A program made the translations under genes and the position numbers. From NCBI GenBank assembly GCA_949481375.1, contig CASYCI010000001.1:64001-128000 (forward strand): a stretch of DNA of 64,000 nucleotides. The letters are read 5' to 3'. This stretch comes from an uncultured Lachnospiraceae bacterium. Its GTDB lineage: Bacteria > Bacillota > Clostridia > Lachnospirales > Lachnospiraceae. The notes below the pieces were generated by a model. The model was not told where the DNA came from. It did no database searches and saw only the letters and a list, made by a program, of their open reading frames with translations. Below are positions 4,306-59,873 of this stretch, piece by piece. Each line of letters begins with the position of its first letter. Position 1 is the first letter of the stretch.

Positions 4306-4370
4306 AAAAACGCCGCTTATCGTCATAGAGCCCGCTCCATCGGGCGAACAGATATAAGCGGCGTTTCTTT
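4306..4370. terminator. nested bidirectional hairpin terminator between convergent genes
   Basis: AAAAACGCCGCTTAT...ATAAGCGGCGTTT outer stem with inner GCCCGC/GCGGGC hairpin, flanked by an A-run and T-run. Confidence 0.5.
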
Positions 4371-4384
4371 AAAAACAGCCAGAT

Positions 4385-5940: not shown

Positions 5941-6159
5941 ACAAAAACAGAACCAATGATTGTAATATAATTTTTTACAAATACATCGGTTCTGTTTTTT
6001 ATGATAATTTTCTACAAACTCATCAATTCTGTTTTTATGATAATTTCCTACAGATTCTTCGATTCTGTTTTTTATGATAATTTTCTACAAACTCATCAAT
6101 TCTGTTTTTCATGATAATTTCCTACAAATTCTTCGATTCTGTTTTTTATATTATTATCC
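5941..6159. repeat. tandem direct repeats, 36-37 bp x5 with alternating A/B variants, preceded by an inverted partial copy
   Basis: Units start at 5977, 6014, 6050, 6087 and 6123: TACAAA(Y)TCATCRRTTCTGTTTTT(T)ATGATAATTTYC. 5941-5960 is an inverted copy of the CGGTTCTGTTTTT core. The array lies in the convergent intergenic gap between the DUF3892 gene and the RND gene. Confidence 0.9.
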
Positions 6160-6186: not shown

Positions 6187-9100
6187 CTAGTTCCCACGCT
6201 CCATCTGTTCAATAAATTCCGCGGCGTCGTCCGGCGCATCGTCCATAGAATCGTCCCCAACGTCTACGACGATTACTTCTTTGCGGTAAAGAATATCGTA
6301 CATCACCGGAACGATAAACATCGTCATAAACGTTGCATAGAACAAGCCGCCCGCTACGACAAGCGCCATTCCCCTGCCAAGCTCACTTGCCGTATCTTGG
6401 CTGAACACCATTGCAAGCATGGCCAGAATAGTCGTAAACGCCGTCATTAAAATGGGACGCATACGCGTTTTCCCAGTCGCTGCCAGAGCATCTTTTCGCT
6501 CCATTCCTCCTATGCGAAGCTGGTTCGTATAATCCACAAACACAATCCCGTTATTTACAACCGTCCCCATCAGCACCAAAAATCCCATCAGCGTAATTAA
6601 AGACATCTGCTCGCCCGTAAACAGCATAGCAAGCAGCCCGCCCGTAAATGCCAGCGGAACCGTAAAAATAACGATAAATGGAGACAGAAGGCTTTGAAAC
6701 TGCGCCACCATGACAAGATAAATCAGAAGGAAGCCTAAAAGCAGAAGCTTTGACATCTGGTTCATCATATCATTTGTATTTGACGTTTCCCCGCCAAATT
6801 CTACGCTATAGCCTTCCGGCAATTCATACTCTGCCAGCAGTTCTTCCACTTCCCTTGACAAAATCGTAGTATTGTACCCCTCTTTTGTCTCCGCAGTCAC
6901 GCTCATCTGCCTTTGTCCGTTTGCGCGGTTTATCCCCGCTACGCTGTTACCATACTCCAGCGTCGCAAATTCACTCAGCTTGTGCGTTTCCGTCACAGTT
7001 TTGCCATCGTCGTCCGTCTTCTGCGTTTCAAATTCCATATCCATCAGGTTTTCTTTCGTCAGCAGATTCGTTTCATCGACTATTTTCACGTCCATGTCAG
7101 TGTCGTCTACTGTCAGCGTAACCGCCGTTTTATCCGTTGTCAGCCTGTCAGAAATATCTCCATAAATCTGCGCTCCCGTCAAACCAAGCCGCATAGATGC
7201 ATCTTTATCAATATTCAGATGAATTTCCTCGTCCGCTTCCTCCTGCCCATTGCTGATATTAGAAAAACCTTCCACACCCTCCAACATCTCCATAATTTCT
7301 TCACTTACCAACAGCAGTTGATCCAAATCCGAACCGCCTATGTCAAGCTGAAGGCCGCTGCCAAGCATTTGATCCATTTCACCCATCATAGAATTTGACA
7401 CTGCCACTTCGCACTCAAACTCTTTCGTATGTTCTAAAATCGCATCGCAAATGCCCTCCACCTGAGATTTGCTGTTATATTCCTCCGCGGGAAGAACAAA
7501 ATACGAAAAATTACTGAAATTATCCGAAGAACCGCCCGTCATGCCGCCCATTAATCCGGCAGAACTGCTGCCGTCCATGGCTCCTACATATCCAACTCCC
7601 TCAATCCCAAGAATCGCTTCCATCACATCGTCTGCTTTTTGATAAGCCGTTTCTTTCGTGTCTTCTTCCGGGATCGTCACCGTTACGGAAATCTGGTCGC
7701 TACCCATATCCGGGATTAACACGATCCCCATTTTCATAACCGCGGCAATGCAAATCGCCAAAAGCCCGACAGAAATTCCAAGCGGAACAATTTTAAATCT
7801 CAGGCAAAACTTAAGCGCCGCCGCATAGCCTTCCTGAATCTTATCAAAAATACGATGCTGTTTCGGTTTCGCCTTCCGAAGCATTGCCGCCCCCATCGTA
7901 GGCACTACTGTCAGCGCAACAGCTAAGGAAGCCGTCAGGGCAAACGTAATCGTCAAAGCAAACGGCAACAGCAAATCCCTCACCATGCCCGTCGTAAACA
8001 CCATCGGGAAAAATACGCAAATCGTCGTAAGCGTTGACGCTATAATCGCCCCAGCCACCTGTTTTGCCCCTTGAACGGCAGAACGGGGAGAACTTAAGCC
8101 CCGATACCGCAGACGGTAAATATTTTCTATTACAACAATGGAGTTATCCACCAGCATACCTACTGCCAAAGAAAGCCCTGACAGGGACATCATGTTGATG
8201 GAAATGCCTGCAAAATACATAATGACGATTGCCGTCAAAACGCTGAACGGGATACTAAACGCAACGACGATCGTTGGGCGTATATCCATCAAAAAGACTG
8301 CCAAAATGAAAATCGCAAGCAGCGCCCCAATCACCATGCTGGACACAATGCTTTGAATCAGCATAGAAATATATTCCCCCTGATTCACTAACGGCGTAAT
8401 GTTCAATTTTGGGTAGTCCTCTTTTAATTCCTCTATTGCGTTTAAACAGGCTTCTGAAACATCGCTTGTGCCCGCCGTACTGCCTTTAAAAATAGATAGA
8501 ATCACTCCGGCGTCCTGATTGACCTTCGCATATGTTTCTCCGGCATTGTCAATCGTCGTAATATCCGCAACGTCATTCAAATGAACGTCCCCAATGCCGT
8601 CTATCTCACAGAGCGTCATTTTTTCTAATTCTTCCGCCGAAGTATAATTTTCCCCTACTTTTAAAAGCCATTGTTTCTCATTTTCATCGTCGATATATCC
8701 TGCCGGCATAGAAAAATTTTGCGCATAGATCATGCCAGAAAGCGCTTCTAACGTCAACATTTGATTGATATTCGCATTTTTCCTCGCTTCCGCAACAGAA
8801 TCCTGATACGTCTTATTGGCATTTTCCAATTCTTCCTGCGCTTCTTCCATTGCCGTCTTTGCCGCGGCAATCTGCGCGCCGCCGGAACCAAACCCCGCCG
8901 CCGCAGATATTTTGCCTTGTTCCGCCTGCTTATACGCCTCGTCAATGGACGCCATCTGGGTTTCCACCTGCTTTAAGACTTCTTCCGCTACTTTAATCTC
9001 TACCTCCAGATTCGCCAGCTCCGTCTCTATTTGCGGAAGGCGGACGTTTACAATGTCATAAAGCTGTTTTAATGTTTTTTTGTCTAGTTCCTTTGCCTGA

Positions 9101-39075: not shown

Positions 39076-39104
39076 AACTGATTCTCCTTTTTAAGACATT
39101 TTTG

Positions 39105-39137
39105 ATTTGAAGTTCAAATGTTTTGATTGTCAAATTA
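39105..39137. promoter_or_regulatory. two adjacent FabT-box-like palindromes in the acpP/fab operon promoter
   Basis: ATTTGAAGTTCAAAT (39105-39119) and TTTTGATTGTCAAATT (39121-39136) fit the streptococcal FabT operator consensus AnTTTGAyTrTCAAAnT. They lie 30-60 bp upstream of the acpP start. Confidence 0.45.
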
Positions 39138-39235
39138 TTTGACAGGCAAAGTATAATACAGTAGGAAATAAATGTCAACTGCTAATTTGAATTAATATAA
39201 AAAATGTGGTAGGATTTTGGGGTGGCAAAATACGC

Positions 39236-39459
39236 AAAAAAGAGCCGTCTATGCTAGCGGGGCTGTGTTCTGGGATTAAGGGGTTCTAATGTGTTCCTTC
39301 TGCTTTTTGGTTTCGGACGCAACCACTGCAGACACGCCTTCCATGGCGTGGCTGCAGTTTGCCCTGCCGTCCATGGCAGGGCATTGCTGTATGTTGCAGG
39401 AACACATAAGAATCCCTAAATCCCATCACAATGCCCCGCTAGCATAGACGGCTTTTTTG
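39236..39459. repeat. structured intergenic element, copy A (candidate structured RNA or miniature element inserted in a hairpin loop)
   Basis: Perfect 20-bp terminal stem GCCGTCTATGCTAGCGGGGC / GCCCCGCTAGCATAGACGGC, flanked by A6 and T6. Inner arms GGGATTAAGGGGTTCTAA / TAAGAATCCCTAAATCCC. Internal hairpins CACGCC-TTCCAT-GGCGTG and CCCTGCC-GTCCAT-GGCAGGG. Homologous to copies B and C. Confidence 0.6.
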
Positions 39460-39837
39460 CGGCGCTTTGGCTGAATTTACTTTTTTATATTATATCGGTG
39501 GCGCTTAAGGGTGTATGGCTATACGGTTGGCTGTGAATGTTATCTGCTAATTCGCAGGCTAAAATGTACTTTGTTTTTTTATGTTATAACTATGTGTGTG
39601 TTGTGGGTTCTATATTGACTTGTTTTACTTTTGCTGTTTTGTTACCTTGTTTCGCTTTTGTTGGTTTCATTGATTGGTTTGTTTCGCTTTTGCTGTTTTT
39701 AAAGCTGGAATTTGGGCTGGAATTGATATGTTTTGGGAGGTTTGCGCATTCTGTAAGTATGTGTTTCTTTTTTGGCGGGTTATTTTGTTTCTGTTTGTAA
39801 ATGCTTTTTTATGATGGGATTCTTTTGAAAGGAGGTT

Positions 39838-40557
39838 TTGATGGATACTATTTTGTTGTTGGAAGATGAGGAGAGTTTGCGGAGGGGGATCTGTTTTAAA
39901 TTGGAAAAGGAAGGGTATCGGGTGTTTTCTTGTGGCTCGGTGGCGGAGGGTAAGCGGTTGTTTCGTTCGCATGAAATTGGGCTTGTGTTATGTGATATTA
40001 CTTTAACGGACGGAAGCGGGATTTCGTTTTGCAGGTATTTACGTGAGGATTTGCATGATGATGTGCGGTTTATTTTTTTGACTGCGATGGATTCGGAAGT
40101 TGATATTGTGATGGGTTATGATACGGGCGCAGATGATTATGTGACGAAACCGTTTAGCCTTGCTGTGTTGATGTCGAAGGTGCATTCGGTGTTTAAACGT
40201 TTGAATATGCATTCGGATTCTGGAGCGGGGAACGGGCAGACTGTTTTTGTTTCTGGGAAGCTGACTTATTATCCAAATGAAATGCGGCTTTTGGTGGATC
40301 ATGCGCCTGTGACGCTGACGAAAAATGAGTATCGGCTGTTACAGTTGTTTTTGAATTATCCTAGGCAGATTTTGTCGAAAACGCAGATTCTTGAACAGAT
40401 TTTTGATGCAGATGGGCATTTTGTTGATGATAATACAGTTGCGGTGAATATCCGGCGGCTGAGAGCGAAAATTTTGGATAGTGATGATAACCGGATGATT
40501 CGGAATGTCCGGGGAATGGGGTATGTATGGGATTGCGAAGTCATGCAAAAAATGTGA
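39838..40557 (+). CDS. OmpR-family response regulator
   Basis: Receiver domain (LLLEDEESLR...LVLCDITLTDGSG...DDYVTKPF) plus winged-helix C-terminus. Confidence 0.9.
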   Translation: MMDTILLLEDEESLRRGICFKLEKEGYRVFSCGSVAEGKRLFRSHEIGLVLCDITLTDGSGISFCRYLREDLHDDVRFIFLTAMDSEVDIVMGYDTGADDYVTKPFSLAVLMSKVHSVFKRLNMHSDSGAGNGQTVFVSGKLTYYPNEMRLLVDHAPVTLTKNEYRLLQLFLNYPRQILSKTQILEQIFDADGHFVDDNTVAVNIRRLRAKILDSDDNRMIRNVRGMGYVWDCEVMQKM

Positions 40558-41759
40558 GTTTTGTGTTTTTGTTTGGCATTATGCTTGTTTTGTTTACGGC
40601 GTTTTTGGATTTTTGGGTTTTGAGGGAGCTGAAACGCAGTTATCAGGAAACGGAACTGGTGATTATGGGCATTGCGGGTAGCAATGAAGCGGGTAGCGGG
40701 CTTTTACGCTGGCAGAAGGAGGCGCCGGATGCGGATTGGCTTTTGTCGGGAGAACGTCTGATGGGTTTTTATGGGTATGATTTGGAAACGGACACTGTTT
40801 GGGATAGGAAGTTTTCGGAGGCTAGGCGTGGCGTACTGATTGTGTCTGTTTGTTTGGATTTGGCGCTGTTTGCGGCTTTTGCCGCTATTTGGCGTCGGAG
40901 GGAAAAGGGGAATGCGGTTATTTTTATGGAGTTGGAATCTGTGTTCCGAAAGCTTCAAACGACGGATTCTCTCCGGCCGGAGTTTGAGTTTACGCATTTT
41001 GACGAGGTTTTGAAGGATCGCATTCTTTCTTTATGGGAACAGATTCAGACGGATCGGGAATGTTTGATCCGGGAGAAGGAGACAACGAAGGCGCTTGTGA
41101 CGGATATTTCCCATCAGTTGAAAACGCCTGTCGCCGCTTTGAAAACTAGTATGGAATTGCTTGCATCAGAAGATCTTACGCAAGAGGAGGAGGACGAATT
41201 TTATGAAAACTGCCTATATCAACTGAATGGGCTTGAAAATCTGACGAAGGCGCTTGTTAATGTTTCCCGTATGGAAAAAGGCATGATCGAGCTTCATATG
41301 GAGCCTTGTGATCTGAATGAAACTATTTTGGACGCCGTCAACAGGCTGTACGGGAAGGCGGCGGCAAAGGGCATTTTGATTGAAATGTCTGAGGATTCGC
41401 CGAAATATCCTGTTATTGTAAGACAGGATAGGAAGTGGACGACGGAAACGCTTGTTAATCTTATTGACAATGCGATTAAATATAGCGGCGCAGACACGAA
41501 GATCTGCATTCATGTGGAATGCCTGACGAATTTTGTCCGGATCGACGTTGAGGACGAAGGAATCGGGATTCCAAAATCGGAGTATCATAAAATTTTTAAA
41601 CGGTTTTACCGCGGGAAAGCGGTTTCTATGGTGGAAGGGTCCGGCATCGGGCTTTATCTTGCCAGAGAAATTATGGAAAGGCAAAGCGGCGCTGTTTTTG
41701 TCCGGTCGAAGCCTAGCGGGAAACGGGGCTGTATTTTTTCGATACAGTTACCGAAGTAG
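40527..41759 (+). CDS. sensor histidine kinase (2 TM, ~70-aa extracytoplasmic loop, HisKA + HATPase_c)
   Basis: H-box DISHQLKTPVAAL, N-box LIDNAIKYS, G-boxes DEGIGI and GSGIGL. Overlaps the response regulator gene end. Confidence 0.85.
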   Translation: MGLRSHAKNVSFVFLFGIMLVLFTAFLDFWVLRELKRSYQETELVIMGIAGSNEAGSGLLRWQKEAPDADWLLSGERLMGFYGYDLETDTVWDRKFSEARRGVLIVSVCLDLALFAAFAAIWRRREKGNAVIFMELESVFRKLQTTDSLRPEFEFTHFDEVLKDRILSLWEQIQTDRECLIREKETTKALVTDISHQLKTPVAALKTSMELLASEDLTQEEEDEFYENCLYQLNGLENLTKALVNVSRMEKGMIELHMEPCDLNETILDAVNRLYGKAAAKGILIEMSEDSPKYPVIVRQDRKWTTETLVNLIDNAIKYSGADTKICIHVECLTNFVRIDVEDEGIGIPKSEYHKIFKRFYRGKAVSMVEGSGIGLYLAREIMERQSGAVFVRSKPSGKRGCIFSIQLPK

Positions 41760-56611: not shown

Positions 56612-56702
56612 ATATGCCTTCTCCTTTTCTTTTATTCTGACTTTAAGTATAAAATTGTGGGGGGTTAATGTCAATCCATAATTAAATAAATGTGTCCGTC
56701 AT

Positions 56703-56913
56703 GGGGTGGCGCTTGGCGGGTGACTTATTCATGGATTAAGAACTTCTAAACAGTCCCGCAGCTATCTTGAATACGGACGGAACCGCTCCATACACGCCGT
56801 CCATGGCGTGAATGGAGCTTCCGCGAACGTCCTGTTCGCGGATTCCTGAATCGAAATGTGACTGTTAAGAAGTTCTAAATCCAATCATAACGCCACCCGC
56901 CAAGCGCCACCCC
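56703..56913. repeat. structured intergenic element, copy B
   Basis: Perfect 20-bp terminal stem GGGGTGGCGCTTGGCGGGTG / CACCCGCCAAGCGCCACCCC. Arms GGATTAAGAACTTCTAA / TTAAGAAGTTCTAAATCC. Core GGACGGAACCGCT. Hairpins CACGCC-GTCCAT-GGCGTG and CCGCGAAC-GTCCT-GTTCGCGG. Confidence 0.6.
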
Positions 56914-57039
56914 CTGACTACGTTACTGGCTGCCCGATAGGGTTTTGGCTTTGTTTCTTTTTGTTTTGGTATATCTACATAAATATAGATGTGTAGGTTT
57001 TTAGGATTTTTGTTTAACTTTTCACCTCTTTAAAAATCG

Positions 57040-57611
57040 CCACGTTTTCATACGTTTCACTCCCTAACTACTACCAGACAAACTGAGCGCCGTAGATTCT
57101 ATCAGCGCCTTATCATACGTTCCAGCCTCCAACTACCAGACCAACTTAGAGCTGGGTTTTCTATTGGCGCCTTTGATGGAATTTAGGTCTTTAATGCGCA
57201 CATATTTTCTTTCTTCAACTTCCACTCTCTCATATGTTCCACACCCAACTACCAGACCAACAAAACGCAGGGTTTCCTATTGGCGCCTTTAATGAATTTT
57301 AGGACTTGAAAGCGTAACTTTCTTCTTTCTTCAACTTCCACTCTCTCATATGTTCCACCCCCCCAACTACCAGACCAACAAAACGCAGGGTTTCCTATCG
57401 GCGCCTTTGATGAATTTTAGGACTTGAAAGCGTAACTTTCTTCTTTCTTCAACTTCCACTCTCTCATATGTTCCACCCCCAACTACCAAACGAACAGAGC
57501 GCCGGGTTTCCTATTGGCGCCTTTAATGAACTTTAGGACTTGAAAGCGTAACTTTCTTCTTTCTTCAACTTCCAACTCTCTCATACGTTCCACCCCCAAC
57601 TACCAGACGAA
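57040..57611. repeat. tandem array of ~117-bp units (4 full + degenerate ends) derived from the terminal part of element copy C plus ~70 bp of flank
   Basis: Unit starts (AACTACCAGAC...) at 57131, 57247, 57365, 57481 and 57598 (period 116-118). Divergence increases with distance from element C. Each unit carries a decayed copy of the C terminal stem (GGCGCC...GCGCC) and arm remnant. Confidence 0.8.
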
Positions 57612-57831
57612 CAGAGCGCCGGGTATTCTGTTGGCGCCTTGTGATGGGATTTAGGAGTTCTTAAGTATCCCTTCAACAAACAGAAATCCGCAGACACGAT
57701 GTCTGCGGAAGCTCTAATGCGCCATGGACGGCGCTTTTAGAGCGGTTTCGTCCGTCACCGGCATAAAACATGGGATACTTTAGAACTCCTTAATCCCTGA
57801 ACACTTCGCCGACAGAATACCCGGCGCTCTG
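57612..57831. repeat. structured intergenic element, copy C (inverted orientation relative to A/B)
   Basis: 25-bp terminal stem CAGAGCGCCGGGTATTCTGTTGGCG / CGCCGACAGAATACCCGGCGCTCTG. Arms 57646-57671 and 57772-57797. Hairpins CCGCAGACA-CGA-TGTCTGCGG and GCGCC-ATGGAC-GGCGC. Confidence 0.6.
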
Positions 57832-57845
57832 TTTGGCGTTCGGAT

Positions 57846-59873
57846 TTATTGTTCTCCTAGGGCATCCTGCCGTATCTTCTGGTACAAATCCATTTCCACA
57901 TCTACATAAGGCAAAAACTCAAGCGCCGGCAGTCCGGCATGGCAGGTTTCCATGAAACTGCGCCATATCTCCCCCGGATAGGAAGATCCAGATAAACCGG
58001 GAAGTTTTTCCGGCATATCGTAGCCGACCCAGACACTTGTCGTATAATAACGCGTATACCCTGCAAACCAACCGTCTTTATTGTCATTCGTCGTCCCTGT
58101 TTTTCCTGCGGACGGCATTCCCGTTACGCCAAGCCCTCTGCCGGTTCCTTCCGTTATTGCCGTAACAAGCATATTCGTCGCCATGCGGGCGGCAGTTGTT
58201 TTATAGATGTTTGTTTCTTCTTGTGAAGTGGAGAGAATTTCGTTGCCGTCGGCATCTGTAATTTTTATGATGCAGGTTGGAGCGCGGTATTTTCCGTCGT
58301 TTTCAAGCGTTGCGTAAGCCGCTGTAAGTTCGACTGGGGACACTCCGTTTGTCAATCCTCCTAAAGCTGACGTAAGCCGCTCGTCTTCGTCTGCAATCCG
58401 CGAAAATTTCATTGCTTTTAAATAAGAGAGTCCTTTTTTTGGCGTTATCTCCTCTAATAGTTTCCATGCAATCGTGTTTTTCGAACGGGCCAGCGCAGAA
58501 CGCAGCGTCATCTCTCCACTATAACTTCCGTCTGCATTCGACGGGCCTTCTTCAATCGGTTCGTCCACTACAATCGAATCCGGCGTATATTCCTGTTCCA
58601 ACGCCGGCGTATACACTAGTATCGGCTTAATTGCGCTTCCTGGCTGCCTATAGCTTTGATATGCCCGGTTTAACGTATATCCCGCAAAGTCTTGGCTTCT
58701 GCCCCCGACGATTGCCCTGACATATCCTGTCTCATTCTCTATGCAGACGCCTGCTCCTTGTAGTTTAAATACGCCTTCTTCATTTACGTCTGTAAAACCG
58801 GAGAGTTTTTCATCTATTGTCTTTTGAAGAAGTTCCTGTAATTTTAAATCCATTGACGTATAGATGCGGTAGCCCGCTGTAAACAGTTTTTTCTGGCATT
58901 CCGCATACAAATCACTATAACGCGTATCATACAGGCTTTTTTCTTCGTCATTTTTAAATTCTGTCTGAAAAACAAAGCCTTCCCGTTCCATTAACAGACG
59001 TATTGCGCAATAATATGTATACGTCTCCACATAGTTATTTTTTGTATGCTCTGGCCGGTTTAATGTGATTTCCTCCGATTTTGCCATCAGGTACGCGCCT
59101 TTTGAAATTTTCCCGTCTTCATACATATTTAAAAGAATGCGGTCTCTGCGCCCTAACGTGTTTTGCATATTCGTCAGCGGGTCATGAAGCGTCGGATTAT
59201 TGGGAATGGCGCATAAAAACGCAATTTGTGACAAATCCAAGTCATTCACGTCTGCATTAAAGTATCCTCTGCTCGCCGCCTGAATCCCATAATAACCATT
59301 GCCAAAATATATATTATTCAGATAAAATTCTAGGATTTTATTTTTACTGTACTTTTTTTCCAGCTCTGTTGCAATAAACATTTCCTCGACTTTTCTCTGC
59401 CATGTCCGATCCTGTGTCAAAAAAATCGTCCTTGCAAGCTGCTGTGTTATCGTGCTCCCGCCCTGTGTCACTTCTCCGTTTTCAATCGCGGCTCTTGCCG
59501 CGCGGAAAATCGCCCGGTAATCAATTCCATTATGCTGATAAAATTTTTTATCTTCTATGCTTACGATAGCGGCGCATGCATCAGACGGAATATCCTCATA
59601 TGGCAGATAGTAAACGTCTTTTTCCCCTTTTAACGTTGAAATCGTATTTCCGTCTTTGTCATACACAACGCTGGTCTGAGCCACGCAAAACGTGGCTTCT
59701 GTCGACCCGCGCACAAACCGCACAGCTTCCGCTTTCATCTTCTGAACCTGTACGGCATATCCTCCATAATAATAGTAGCCTAGGGCGGCGGCTACCAAAA
59801 GCATCAGAACAAACTGAAGTTTTGCAAAAAACCAAAACACACGGTATTTTTTCTTTTTCTTTTTACGGCTCAT
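57846..59873 (-). CDS. class A penicillin-binding protein (PBP1A-type transglycosylase/transpeptidase)
   Basis: 675 aa. N-terminal TM. GT51 motifs (EDKKFYQHNGID, GGSTITQQL). Transpeptidase motifs SAIK (PGSAIKP) and KTGTT. Confidence 0.88.
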   Translation of the reverse strand: MSRKKKKKKYRVFWFFAKLQFVLMLLVAAALGYYYYGGYAVQVQKMKAEAVRFVRGSTEATFCVAQTSVVYDKDGNTISTLKGEKDVYYLPYEDIPSDACAAIVSIEDKKFYQHNGIDYRAIFRAARAAIENGEVTQGGSTITQQLARTIFLTQDRTWQRKVEEMFIATELEKKYSKNKILEFYLNNIYFGNGYYGIQAASRGYFNADVNDLDLSQIAFLCAIPNNPTLHDPLTNMQNTLGRRDRILLNMYEDGKISKGAYLMAKSEEITLNRPEHTKNNYVETYTYYCAIRLLMEREGFVFQTEFKNDEEKSLYDTRYSDLYAECQKKLFTAGYRIYTSMDLKLQELLQKTIDEKLSGFTDVNEEGVFKLQGAGVCIENETGYVRAIVGGRSQDFAGYTLNRAYQSYRQPGSAIKPILVYTPALEQEYTPDSIVVDEPIEEGPSNADGSYSGEMTLRSALARSKNTIAWKLLEEITPKKGLSYLKAMKFSRIADEDERLTSALGGLTNGVSPVELTAAYATLENDGKYRAPTCIIKITDADGNEILSTSQEETNIYKTTAARMATNMLVTAITEGTGRGLGVTGMPSAGKTGTTNDNKDGWFAGYTRYYTTSVWVGYDMPEKLPGLSGSSYPGEIWRSFMETCHAGLPALEFLPYVDVEMDLYQKIRQDALGEQ

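Follow-up and report, generated by a model that had tools for sequence, protein, structure and literature searches.

The DNA analysed here, a 64,000-nt stretch of contig CASYCI010000001.1 that we refer to as the window, comes from a gut Lachnospiraceae MAG carrying the NCBI label "Eubacterium sp." It holds three copies of a palindromic intergenic repeat, designated A, B, and C, whose parts are listed in Table 1. The coordinates assigned to the copies by a first-pass annotation of the same DNA are correct, as is their orientation, A and B lying on the minus strand and C, opposite to them, on the plus strand. Copy A is located between divergent genes; B and C occupy the intergenic region between a PBP gene and the promoter of a ROK gene. 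Between B and C there is also a 116-bp tandem array that the first-pass annotation had missed (TRF period 116, 4.5 copies, 89% matches). Its units start at 57070 (a short one of 62 nt), 57132, 57248, 57366, 57482, and 57599, and the unit alignment shows in each of them the leader ACTACCAGAC and a variable 5' arm, together with ~25 nt from the start of the core and a C/T-rich stretch of ~60 nt.

Table 1. Parts of the three repeat copies and of the region between the PBP and ROK genes (window positions)
Feature	Position	Strand	Evidence or remark
Copy A, outer stem 3' arm, followed by CTTTTTT and the tail GCGTATTTTGCCACCCC common to other copies	39243..39263	-	
Copy A, core (P1, P2, two AYGGAY-loop hairpins)	39265..39431	-	RF01731, 137.2 bits
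Copy A, outer stem 5' arm, perfect 21 bp, A6 before the arm	39433..39453	-	stem pairing
Copy B, outer stem 3' arm (56703-56722) and conserved tail frame CATGACGGA	56691..56722	-	
Copy B, core	56725..56890	-	RF01731, 120.5 bits, full length
Copy B, outer stem 5' arm (perfect 20 bp, 56894-56913) and conserved leader frame AACGTAGTCAG	56894..56924	-	
Non-repeated spacer separating the B and C 5' ends, no sigma-70-type promoter detected	56925..57069	.	
Tandem array of truncated 5' ends, last unit running into copy C	57070..57638	+	
Copy C, outer stem 5' arm, within the last array unit	57610..57636	+	22 bp perfect, 27 bp with one G.T
Copy C, core, hairpin 1 loop without GGA	57639..57804	+	RF01731, 135.2 bits, full length
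Copy C, outer stem 3' arm, ending 13 nt from the PBP stop codon	57807..57833	+	
Lineage-specific block comprising C, the array, the spacer, and B, bounded by the PBP stop codon (57846-57848) and by the -35 box of ROK (56674)	56676..57845	.	absent in related species

Family membership and fold of the copies

All three repeats belong to TwoAYGGAY, Rfam family RF01731. The Rfam scan matched each of them over model positions 1 to 168 of 168, with the scores given in Table 1 against a gathering cut-off of 43 bits, and we regard the assignment as practically certain. The classification is already known: this is an existing family and no discovery. TwoAYGGAY was first described in 2010 by Weinberg et al. 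(PMC2864571) and re-analyzed in 2014 and 2026; it belongs to the same Rfam clan, CL00106, as CsrB/Rsm, and the published hypotheses see in it a decoy RNA that binds CsrA or a sequence that spreads in the manner of a mobile element (PMC4333381; bioRxiv 10.64898/2026.09.22.753630). The first-pass annotation was mistaken in stating that no known RNA family matches, and the novelty it proposed, which it had made dependent on the lack of a significant Rfam match, falls with the full-length RF01731 matches at 120 to 137 bits. With those matches, and with the family in print since 2010 (PMC2864571) and again in 2014 and 2026, there is next to no chance that the copies represent a structured ncRNA not previously described; after the Rfam scan, no point in favor of such a reading remains. 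The window copies show no essential difference from RF01731: the covariance model aligns to them end to end, they share the twin AYGGAY-loop hairpins atop a common basal stem, and the family as described (PMC2864571) occurs in Clostridiales and the human gut with no fixed gene association. The Rfam model ends at the base of the outer stem, so the perfect outer stem of 20 to 42 bp, the leader and tail, and the pairing of copies lie outside it.

Each copy is a single long hairpin of about 280 to 320 nt. At its base the leader and tail pair weakly, and above them stands a perfect outer stem, 20 to 27 bp long and copy-specific in sequence. The 25-bp stem P1 follows, in which there are an invariant G.U, a bulge, and a U.U mismatch; at the tip, helix P2 closes an apex made of two hairpins whose loops are AYGGAY (GGA). 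Folded whole, the units give one long hairpin each, at energies between -136 and -144 kcal/mol (z-scores, -14.6 to -17.1). When 41 copies were aligned to the Rfam structure, 92.6% of the cells of the core were paired, compared with 74.6% after shuffling and about 40% when the partners were slid, and 37 of the 54 pairs had changed on both sides. Eighteen of the 25 pairs of P1 are among those changed on both sides (92.3% of cells paired), while the 5 pairs of P2 are paired in 99.5% of cells. The same alignment contains one never-paired position, one invariant G.U, and a bulge, which agrees with the ~26-bp inverted arms with a retained mismatch and bulge described earlier, except that the A.A mismatch given there is U.U on the RNA strand. 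The second hairpin with its double compensatory change was likewise found as described. The account of a conserved core segment followed by a hairpin on compensating stems stood in part: the GGACG-N-AACC segment, taken to be single stranded, partly belongs to helix P2. The pseudoknot suggested there, between loop GGACG and CGUCC, was rejected, since no covariation supports it: the loop occurs as GGAC, GGAU, or GGAA opposite an almost invariant CGUCC.

The loops of the two hairpins are AUGGAC and AUGGAA in copy A and A-GGAC and AUGGAC in copy B. In copy C, hairpin 2 has AUGGAC, whereas hairpin 1 has lost the GGA and reads CACGAU, so the hairpin 1 loop is not invariant as had been claimed; this loss counts against RNA function. 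Of the 41 copies, 38 have GGA in the hairpin 1 loop and 40 have it in the hairpin 2 loop. The apex is 94 to 100% identical between paralogues with widely differing stems, the internal loops there only 43 to 80%, in keeping with the modular architecture noted before. Strong covariation in the core and in the outer stem also bears out the earlier proposal of selection on the secondary structure of a single-stranded nucleic acid.

Outer stems, empty sites, and mobility

The copy-specific perfect terminal stems reported by the first-pass annotation are present (21, 20, and 22 bp in A, B, and C), as are the A6 and T6 runs flanking that of copy A; in copy C, 57610-57631 pairs perfectly with 57812-57833. 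The stems begin 1 to 7 nt from the ends of the Rfam core. In 31 of 39 related Lachnospiraceae copies the core is directly adjoined by a perfect stem of 15 bp or more (median, 26 bp); random positions with the same spacing yield 3.4 bp on average (95th percentile, 5 bp). Among type-1 outer stems, 99.5% of cells are paired and 10 of 24 pairs show changes on both sides.

The first-pass annotation had explained these stems by insertion of the ~170-bp core into the loops of unrelated, pre-existing host palindromes or terminators, much as IS1397 and ISKpn1 insert in BIMEs. The perfect, copy-specific stems of the window genome and the A6 and T6 runs of copy A would suit such nested insertion, as would the loose relation between core subtype and outer-stem type, which show no strict linkage. 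However, the variable stems are themselves surrounded by the frames AACGTAGYCAG and CTGRCGGA and by tails that are conserved across copies; the arms fall into recurring families, and no arm motif without a core was found in 387 kb, save one internally deleted copy, so that free target copies are lacking; and similarity between paralogues takes in the stems and 50 to 80 nt past the core on both sides before it ends. The orthologous empty sites also speak against nested insertion. In relatives whose ROK is 90%, 84%, and 80% identical, the PBP-ROK spacer is a palindrome-free 63 to 82 bp, as against 1,234 bp in the window; their PBP stop codon almost abuts the ROK promoter, and the entire 1.17-kb block of C, array, and B is missing. 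The RR-ACP spacer measures 765 bp in the window and 224 bp in a relative, and reciprocally, a pair carried by related sequence L019 has as its counterpart in the window a 125-bp spacer with an ordinary bidirectional terminator. No matching palindrome exists at the empty sites of both window loci or of the L019 locus, and insertion into host palindromes is therefore rejected as highly improbable.

Whole units, outer stems included, are present or absent at orthologous sites of related species, and the element is a dispersed, mobile-element-like repeat, of which there are 3 copies in the 64-kb window and at least 16 in one MAG. Copies B and C form a head-to-head pair. Divergent orientation is common to all 12 of the independent close pairs, for which the chance probability is about 6e-8, and their gaps are mostly 198 to 446 bp; 8 of the 10 full-length pairs that were typed combine one type-1 with one type-2 stem. 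The pairs of L003 and L024, both from one MAG, are similar over ~640 nt, spacer included, showing that one head-to-head pair was duplicated as a unit inside a single genome. Deleted copies exist as well. Mobile-like insertion of an element that brings its own stems is very probably the explanation; B, C, and the array of five truncated 5' ends would represent one 1.17-kb insertion and copy A a singleton insertion, with the mobilizing machinery acting in trans. Absence in the relatives could in principle stem from deletion instead of insertion.

No clear target-site duplication was seen at the compared junctions, whose flanks are too diverged for base-exact ends. The earlier statement that no transposase, reverse transcriptase, or tRNA lies nearby was upheld, and a recurring neighboring transposase, RT, or recombinase was rejected, as no protein family recurs within ~4 kb of the copies other than common ABC-transporter and two-component families. 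Carriage by phage was rejected after 0 matches to the element in a viral contig collection. Same-species assemblies (L001, L040 to L042) showed no polymorphism, just an assembly gap in the array. Paralogues that are nearly identical are lacking, so that recent transposition is not in evidence.

Compensated changes keep every stem paired at the resident loci, which indicates that the copies are not simply decaying. Orthologues between MAGs carry a few uncompensated changes, but stems are still perfect in old paralogues, and on this ground simple decay of stems that are born perfect was rejected. Perfect stems and a near-identical apex beside unpaired sequence that is 20 to 50% diverged point to selection or conversion at each locus. 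A more specific scheme, which we consider a long shot, is that the head-to-head pair, usually type 1 plus type 2, is the transposing unit of a structure-dependent element with the CsrA-type decoy as cargo or recognition module, and that the outer stem, free in sequence, is kept Watson-Crick at each locus by arm-to-arm copying (hairpin-templated repair or replication) instead of by RNA-level selection. To our knowledge, such maintenance and mobility by arm copying are undescribed for IS, MITE, or REPIN systems.

Decoy RNA, DNA repeat, or gene-end element

If transcribed on the Rfam strand, the apex would offer two CsrA-type binding hairpins, which on the basis of the literature would make the unit a decoy for one CsrA dimer, and the long stem would give stability or processing. 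CsrA binding of TwoAYGGAY was predicted by Gardner and Eldai, and the prevalence of GGA in both hairpin loops and the near-identity of the apex between paralogues speak for it; we tentatively entertain a CsrA-decoy function for the window copies. A CsrA-like ORF was not found in the ~390 kb of sequence examined. A sigma-70-type promoter at a fixed distance upstream of the copies was not found either (13 weak matches, compared with 8.6 expected, and zero in the B-C spacer); the neighboring ROK and fab promoters match at 11 of 12 positions. A shared bidirectional promoter in the pair spacers was rejected, as none was found. The outer stems show no G.U excess on the Rfam strand (25 G.U versus 30 A.C), and the G.U count of the core is uninformative because the AYGGAY positions that close the loops confound it. 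With the exception of one invariant G.U, pairing in the helices looks purely Watson-Crick, which is not what an RNA-only constraint predicts.

That pattern, with a G.U excess on neither strand, and the lack of a detected dedicated promoter would fit a mobile palindromic repeat that, like MITEs or REPINs, acts at the DNA level alone. The conserved fold would then be a single-stranded DNA hairpin recognized by a trans-acting transposase or recombinase (e.g., a Y1/HUH enzyme such as RAYT), any transcript would be a by-product, and proteins would contact the GGA loops on the DNA. The presence or absence of units at orthologous sites, the whole duplication of one pair, the truncated and deleted copies, and the flanking tandem repeats also favor it, and members of the family in Pseudomonas stand at a fixed position beside REP arrays (bioRxiv 10.64898/2026.09.22.753630). 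On the other hand, neither a transposase or recombinase gene recurring near the copies nor a target-site duplication was seen, the GGA loops impart a strand polarity, as does the invariant G.U, which would read A.C on the opposite strand, and the retention of perfect stems and apex next to diverged unpaired neighbors is not neutral decay, so that we judge a DNA-only repeat to be rather unlikely. Most units adjoin the 3' end of a gene, 21 of 23 being in tandem or convergent intergenic regions; this would agree both with the DNA-level repeat and with a REP-like gene-end element, whose very stable hairpin would serve as a terminator, insulator, or mRNA 3'-end protector, bidirectionally in the case of a head-to-head pair. 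Many units lie a few nucleotides from a stop codon, copy C at 13 nt from that of PBP and those of L003, L007, L019, L024, and L029 similarly, no more than 2 of the 23 are found between divergent genes, and the L019 pair stands at the place of an ordinary bidirectional terminator in the window. A-runs and T-runs occur at the stem base of copy A and in type-1 tails; however, T-runs are confined to these and absent from B and C, and copy A lies between divergent genes, where a terminator is needless. The ~170-nt loop is far from that of a canonical intrinsic terminator, and a scan for intrinsic terminators made no call at the bases of the outer stems, which enclose ~170 nt. A gene-end role, which also leaves the conserved twin GGA hairpins and the pairing of two stem types unexplained, is unlikely in our estimation. 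Taken as a whole, the copies are probably best explained as a mobile-like TwoAYGGAY repeat that has its own stems and is a putative CsrA decoy.

Relation to known systems and significance

Similar to the window copies, TwoAYGGAY elements of Pseudomonadota, for which Li et al. gave a mobile-element-like interpretation in September 2026 (bioRxiv 10.64898/2026.09.22.753630), occur in many copies per genome and have flanking tandem repeats. Divergent pairs are in excess there as well, ~250 bp apart, but make up 68% compared with 12 of 12 here. The three extra hairpins and the 3' pseudoknot of Pseudomonas are absent here, and there is an elongated basal stem instead, as Li et al. state for Bacillota. 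The long repeats lie 5' of copy C, whereas they are 3' in Pseudomonadota, and 5' pentamer repeats of the Pseudomonas type (GMTBT) were rejected, as they are not enriched here. What the present analysis adds to the Pseudomonadota study is evidence from empty sites, the recognition of two stem types, and the duplication of a pair as a unit.

Like CsrB/RsmZ, TwoAYGGAY presents GGA in hairpin loops, within surrounding sequence resembling the CsrA SELEX consensus; unlike them, a unit has only two sites, placed within a very long hairpin, is multicopy and mobile-like with no dedicated promoter detected, and its CsrA binding is a prediction. We know of no established CsrA-sponge sRNA in Firmicutes. 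The copies resemble REP/BIME/REPIN sequences and MITEs (Correia, RUP, ERIC) in being short, non-coding, palindromic, and intergenic, often at gene 3' ends, and in having a variable copy number, insertions polymorphic between relatives, arrays, and truncated copies. They differ from these in a far more elaborate, covarying internal structure of at least 54 pairs with a conserved apex, and in that neither a target-site duplication nor a linked RAYT/IS transposase was found.

Attention to TwoAYGGAY, for which the functions put forward since 2010 are hypotheses, was renewed by the September 2026 preprint, which regards it as a possible mobile element and regulator (bioRxiv 10.64898/2026.09.22.753630). 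To this the window and its relatives contribute evidence from Gram-positive bacteria of one lineage: empty sites that are clean, close pairs that are head-to-head without exception and of which one was duplicated whole, outer stems that are variable in sequence yet perfectly paired, and an apex that stays near-identical while the rest diverges. These points leave the classification unchanged and sharpen the experimental questions of the transcribed strand, of CsrA binding, and of the agent that mobilizes the element.

Identity and structure of the three copies

When the entire window was scanned against Rfam 15 at the gathering threshold (43 bits for RF01731), only one family matched, RF01731 (TwoAYGGAY), with exactly three matches that all span the full model. 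Copies A, B, and C are typical high-scoring members of this known family, which refutes the proposal of the first-pass annotation that the element was novel and matched no family, although its structural reading was right and its coordinates and sequence for the three copies were confirmed. The motif was first published in 2010 from human gut, gamma-proteobacteria, and Clostridiales and was judged a probable RNA that is not cis-regulatory (PMC2864571). Rfam places RF01731 in clan CL00106, the CsrB clan, as confirmed by a scan of E. coli csrB.

TwoAYGGAY cores (the part covered by the RF01731 model) and outer stems (the perfect helix just outside the core) in the window
Feature	Coordinates	Strand	Details
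Copy A core	39265-39431	-	RF01731, 137.2 bits
Copy A outer stem	39433-39453 with 39243-39263	-	perfect, 21 bp
Copy B core	56725-56890	-	RF01731, 120.5 bits
Copy B outer stem	56894-56913 with 56703-56722	-	perfect, 20 bp
Copy C core	57639-57804	+	RF01731, 135.2 bits
Copy C outer stem	57610-57631 with 57812-57833	+	perfect, 22 bp; 27 bp allowing one G.T

Covariation was scored on the Rfam structure in 41 full-length copies (3 from the window, 38 from related loci). In this alignment, 92.6% of cells pair, compared with 74.6% after shuffling and about 40% with partners slid, and 37 of 54 core pairs are changed on both sides; the compensatory changes first noticed among the three copies are therefore real. 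All copies share an invariant G.U, a U.U position that never pairs (the A.A mismatch noted earlier), and the bulge. The previously described 26-bp inverted arms correspond to model helix P1 and the two hairpins to the AYGGAY-loop hairpins, which in A and B had been read from the other strand, whereas the supposed single-stranded core is partly helix P2, and the suggested pseudoknot is unsupported, with CGUCC nearly invariant and the loop variable. Together with their outer stems, units A, B, and C each fold into one long hairpin (-137.9, -136.5, and -143.5 kcal/mol; z-scores of -15.5, -14.6, and -17.1).

Outer stems and extent of the unit

The perfect outer stems were recovered by an inverted-repeat search and a script; they lie 1 to 7 nt from the core in A, B, and C, and random positions at equal spacing gave a mean stem of 3.4 bp. 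One subfamily-pattern scan of species-representative genomes yielded 29 related loci, all in Lachnospiraceae, Roseburia, or Eubacterium genomes (mostly MAGs), holding 40 additional Rfam matches. Of 39 testable copies, 31 have a stem that abuts the core and pairs perfectly over 15 bp or more (median, 26 bp; maximum, 42 bp). The stem frames are conserved (5' ...AACGTAG(T/C)CAG, 3' CTG(A/G)CGG(A), plus a tail), both being clear in copy B. In several genomes the outer arms are of two recurring G-rich types; type 1 stems covary strongly, with pairing in 99.5% of cells and changes on both sides in 10 of 24 pairs. The stems of the window's species fit neither type well and are truly copy-specific, as first annotated. 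Because L025 matches the C locus exactly, L004, L011, L015, and L016 represent more copies from this species.

Similarity between paralogues reaches 50 to 80 nt past the Rfam match on both sides, giving a unit of about 280 to 320 nt. Arm motifs away from a core were almost never found in 387 kb searched; one "solo" palindrome there (L028:1290-1400) is an internally deleted copy in which the core start is fused to the distal 3' arm. The outer stems are part of the TwoAYGGAY element. A decayed copy lacking the P1 5' strand and hairpin 1 lies at L002:4590-4760.

Empty sites, pairs, and neighborhood

The first-pass annotation had explained the outer stems by insertion of the core into host palindromes. 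The gene order of the B/C locus, PBP-ROK-DUF4317, is retained in three relatives (ROK protein identity of 90%, 84%, and 80%) in which the PBP-ROK spacer measures 63 to 82 bp; their ROK promoter (TTGACA-17-TATACT) begins 0 to 12 nt past the PBP stop codon, and no palindrome lies between the two genes. In the window, 1,170 bp separate the PBP stop codon from the ROK -35 box. At the copy A locus, the RR-ACP spacer is 765 bp in the window versus 224 bp in one relative, and similarity starts only at the fab promoter. The L019 genome is empty at the PBP-ROK site yet carries a pair elsewhere; in the window, the orthologues of the two genes flanking that pair are separated by 125 bp containing an ordinary terminator hairpin. 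Empty sites without a matching palindrome rule out nested insertion, and these comparisons indicate that units are gained or lost as wholes; less probably, the relatives' empty sites reflect precise loss rather than insertion in the window lineage.

B and C are oriented head-to-head, with their 5' ends facing, as are 12 of 12 independent close pairs (chance, ~6e-8). The gap between Rfam matches within pairs is mostly 198 to 446 bp, and 8 of 10 typed full-length pairs combine a type 1 with a type 2 stem. The L003 and L024 pairs of one MAG are similar across ~640 nt, spacer included, and the pair has therefore been duplicated as a unit. Five truncated 5' ends are arrayed in the B-C interval. Every unit includes a leader, a 5' arm that varies, the initial ~25 nt of the core, and a C/T-rich stretch of ~60 nt; a perfect match to the C 3' arm is seen only for the arm of the last unit. 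Short tandem repeats adjoin copies at several other loci too. In this 116-bp array, public assemblies from the window's species are interrupted or filled with N (L001:~8600-8700; start of L025), so array length is unreliable in short-read MAGs.

Several other features were observed. Window 4311-4372, orthologous to the L019 pair site, is a nested bidirectional terminator-like hairpin (AACGCCGCTTAT...ATAAGCGGCGTT) with convergent genes on each side, and 5967-6149 is a tandem repeat (period 37 or 73 bp, ~5 copies, 84 to 92% matches). The region 5' of copy A (39460-39840), A/C-rich on A's strand, is also lineage specific; it contains a degenerate 32-bp tandem repeat (39619-39699) and an 87-aa ORF (39537-39800, plus strand) without a Pfam match. 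In the interval 39076-39178 on the minus strand, repeated TTTGACAATCAAAA-like motifs lie downstream of the fab-operon promoter (TTGACA-17-TATACT); relatives L044, L045, and L047 conserve these motifs, which resemble an operator that a regulator of fatty acid synthesis would bind. A ~110-bp palindromic element, distinct from TwoAYGGAY, with inverted AAATAAAAGTATATTTCAT / ATGAAATATATTTTTATTT ends around G+C-rich hairpins, lies at L045:200-345, on the upstream side of the ACP promoter.

RNA gene or mobile-like hairpin

Between old paralogues, the apex (P2 plus both hairpins, 71 nt) is 94 to 100% identical and the internal loop 43 to 80%; copy B and L004m share 70 of 71 apex positions and 34 of 52 in P1. 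Outer stems remain perfect at about 20% divergence. The conserved apex and perfect stems point to functional constraint at each locus, and the GGA loops and the one invariant G.U favor the Rfam strand. No consistent promoter was found at the copies (13 weak matches versus 8.6 expected) and none matched in the B-C spacer, whereas promoters of neighboring genes match 11 of 12 positions; in the stems, G.U is not overrepresented on either strand. Both results weigh against a simple sRNA gene. No linked protein family was found near the copies and no phage carriage of the element; the window holds no tRNA, in agreement with the first-pass annotation.

An OmpR-type response regulator and histidine kinase adjoin a copy in four loci (window 39838-41759; L005, L010, L011). 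These proteins are only 27 to 36% identical and hence paralogues; since such pairs are common, the adjacency is probably chance.

In Pseudomonas, TwoAYGGAY shows structural extensions, flanking repeats, extreme copy-number variation, and an excess of divergent pairs, an expansion described as "mobile-element-like" with function unresolved; an elongated basal stem is the only statement on Bacillota copies (bioRxiv 10.64898/2026.09.22.753630, 24 September 2026). Unlike in Pseudomonas, the pentamer motif is not enriched at the Lachnospiraceae copies.

The Lachnospiraceae units mostly adjoin gene 3' ends (16 tandem, 5 convergent, and 2 divergent intergenic regions). The element studied here is most likely a dispersed, mobile-like long hairpin in which pairing at resident loci is actively preserved, and its apex, a twin GGA-hairpin module, would be a candidate CsrA decoy.
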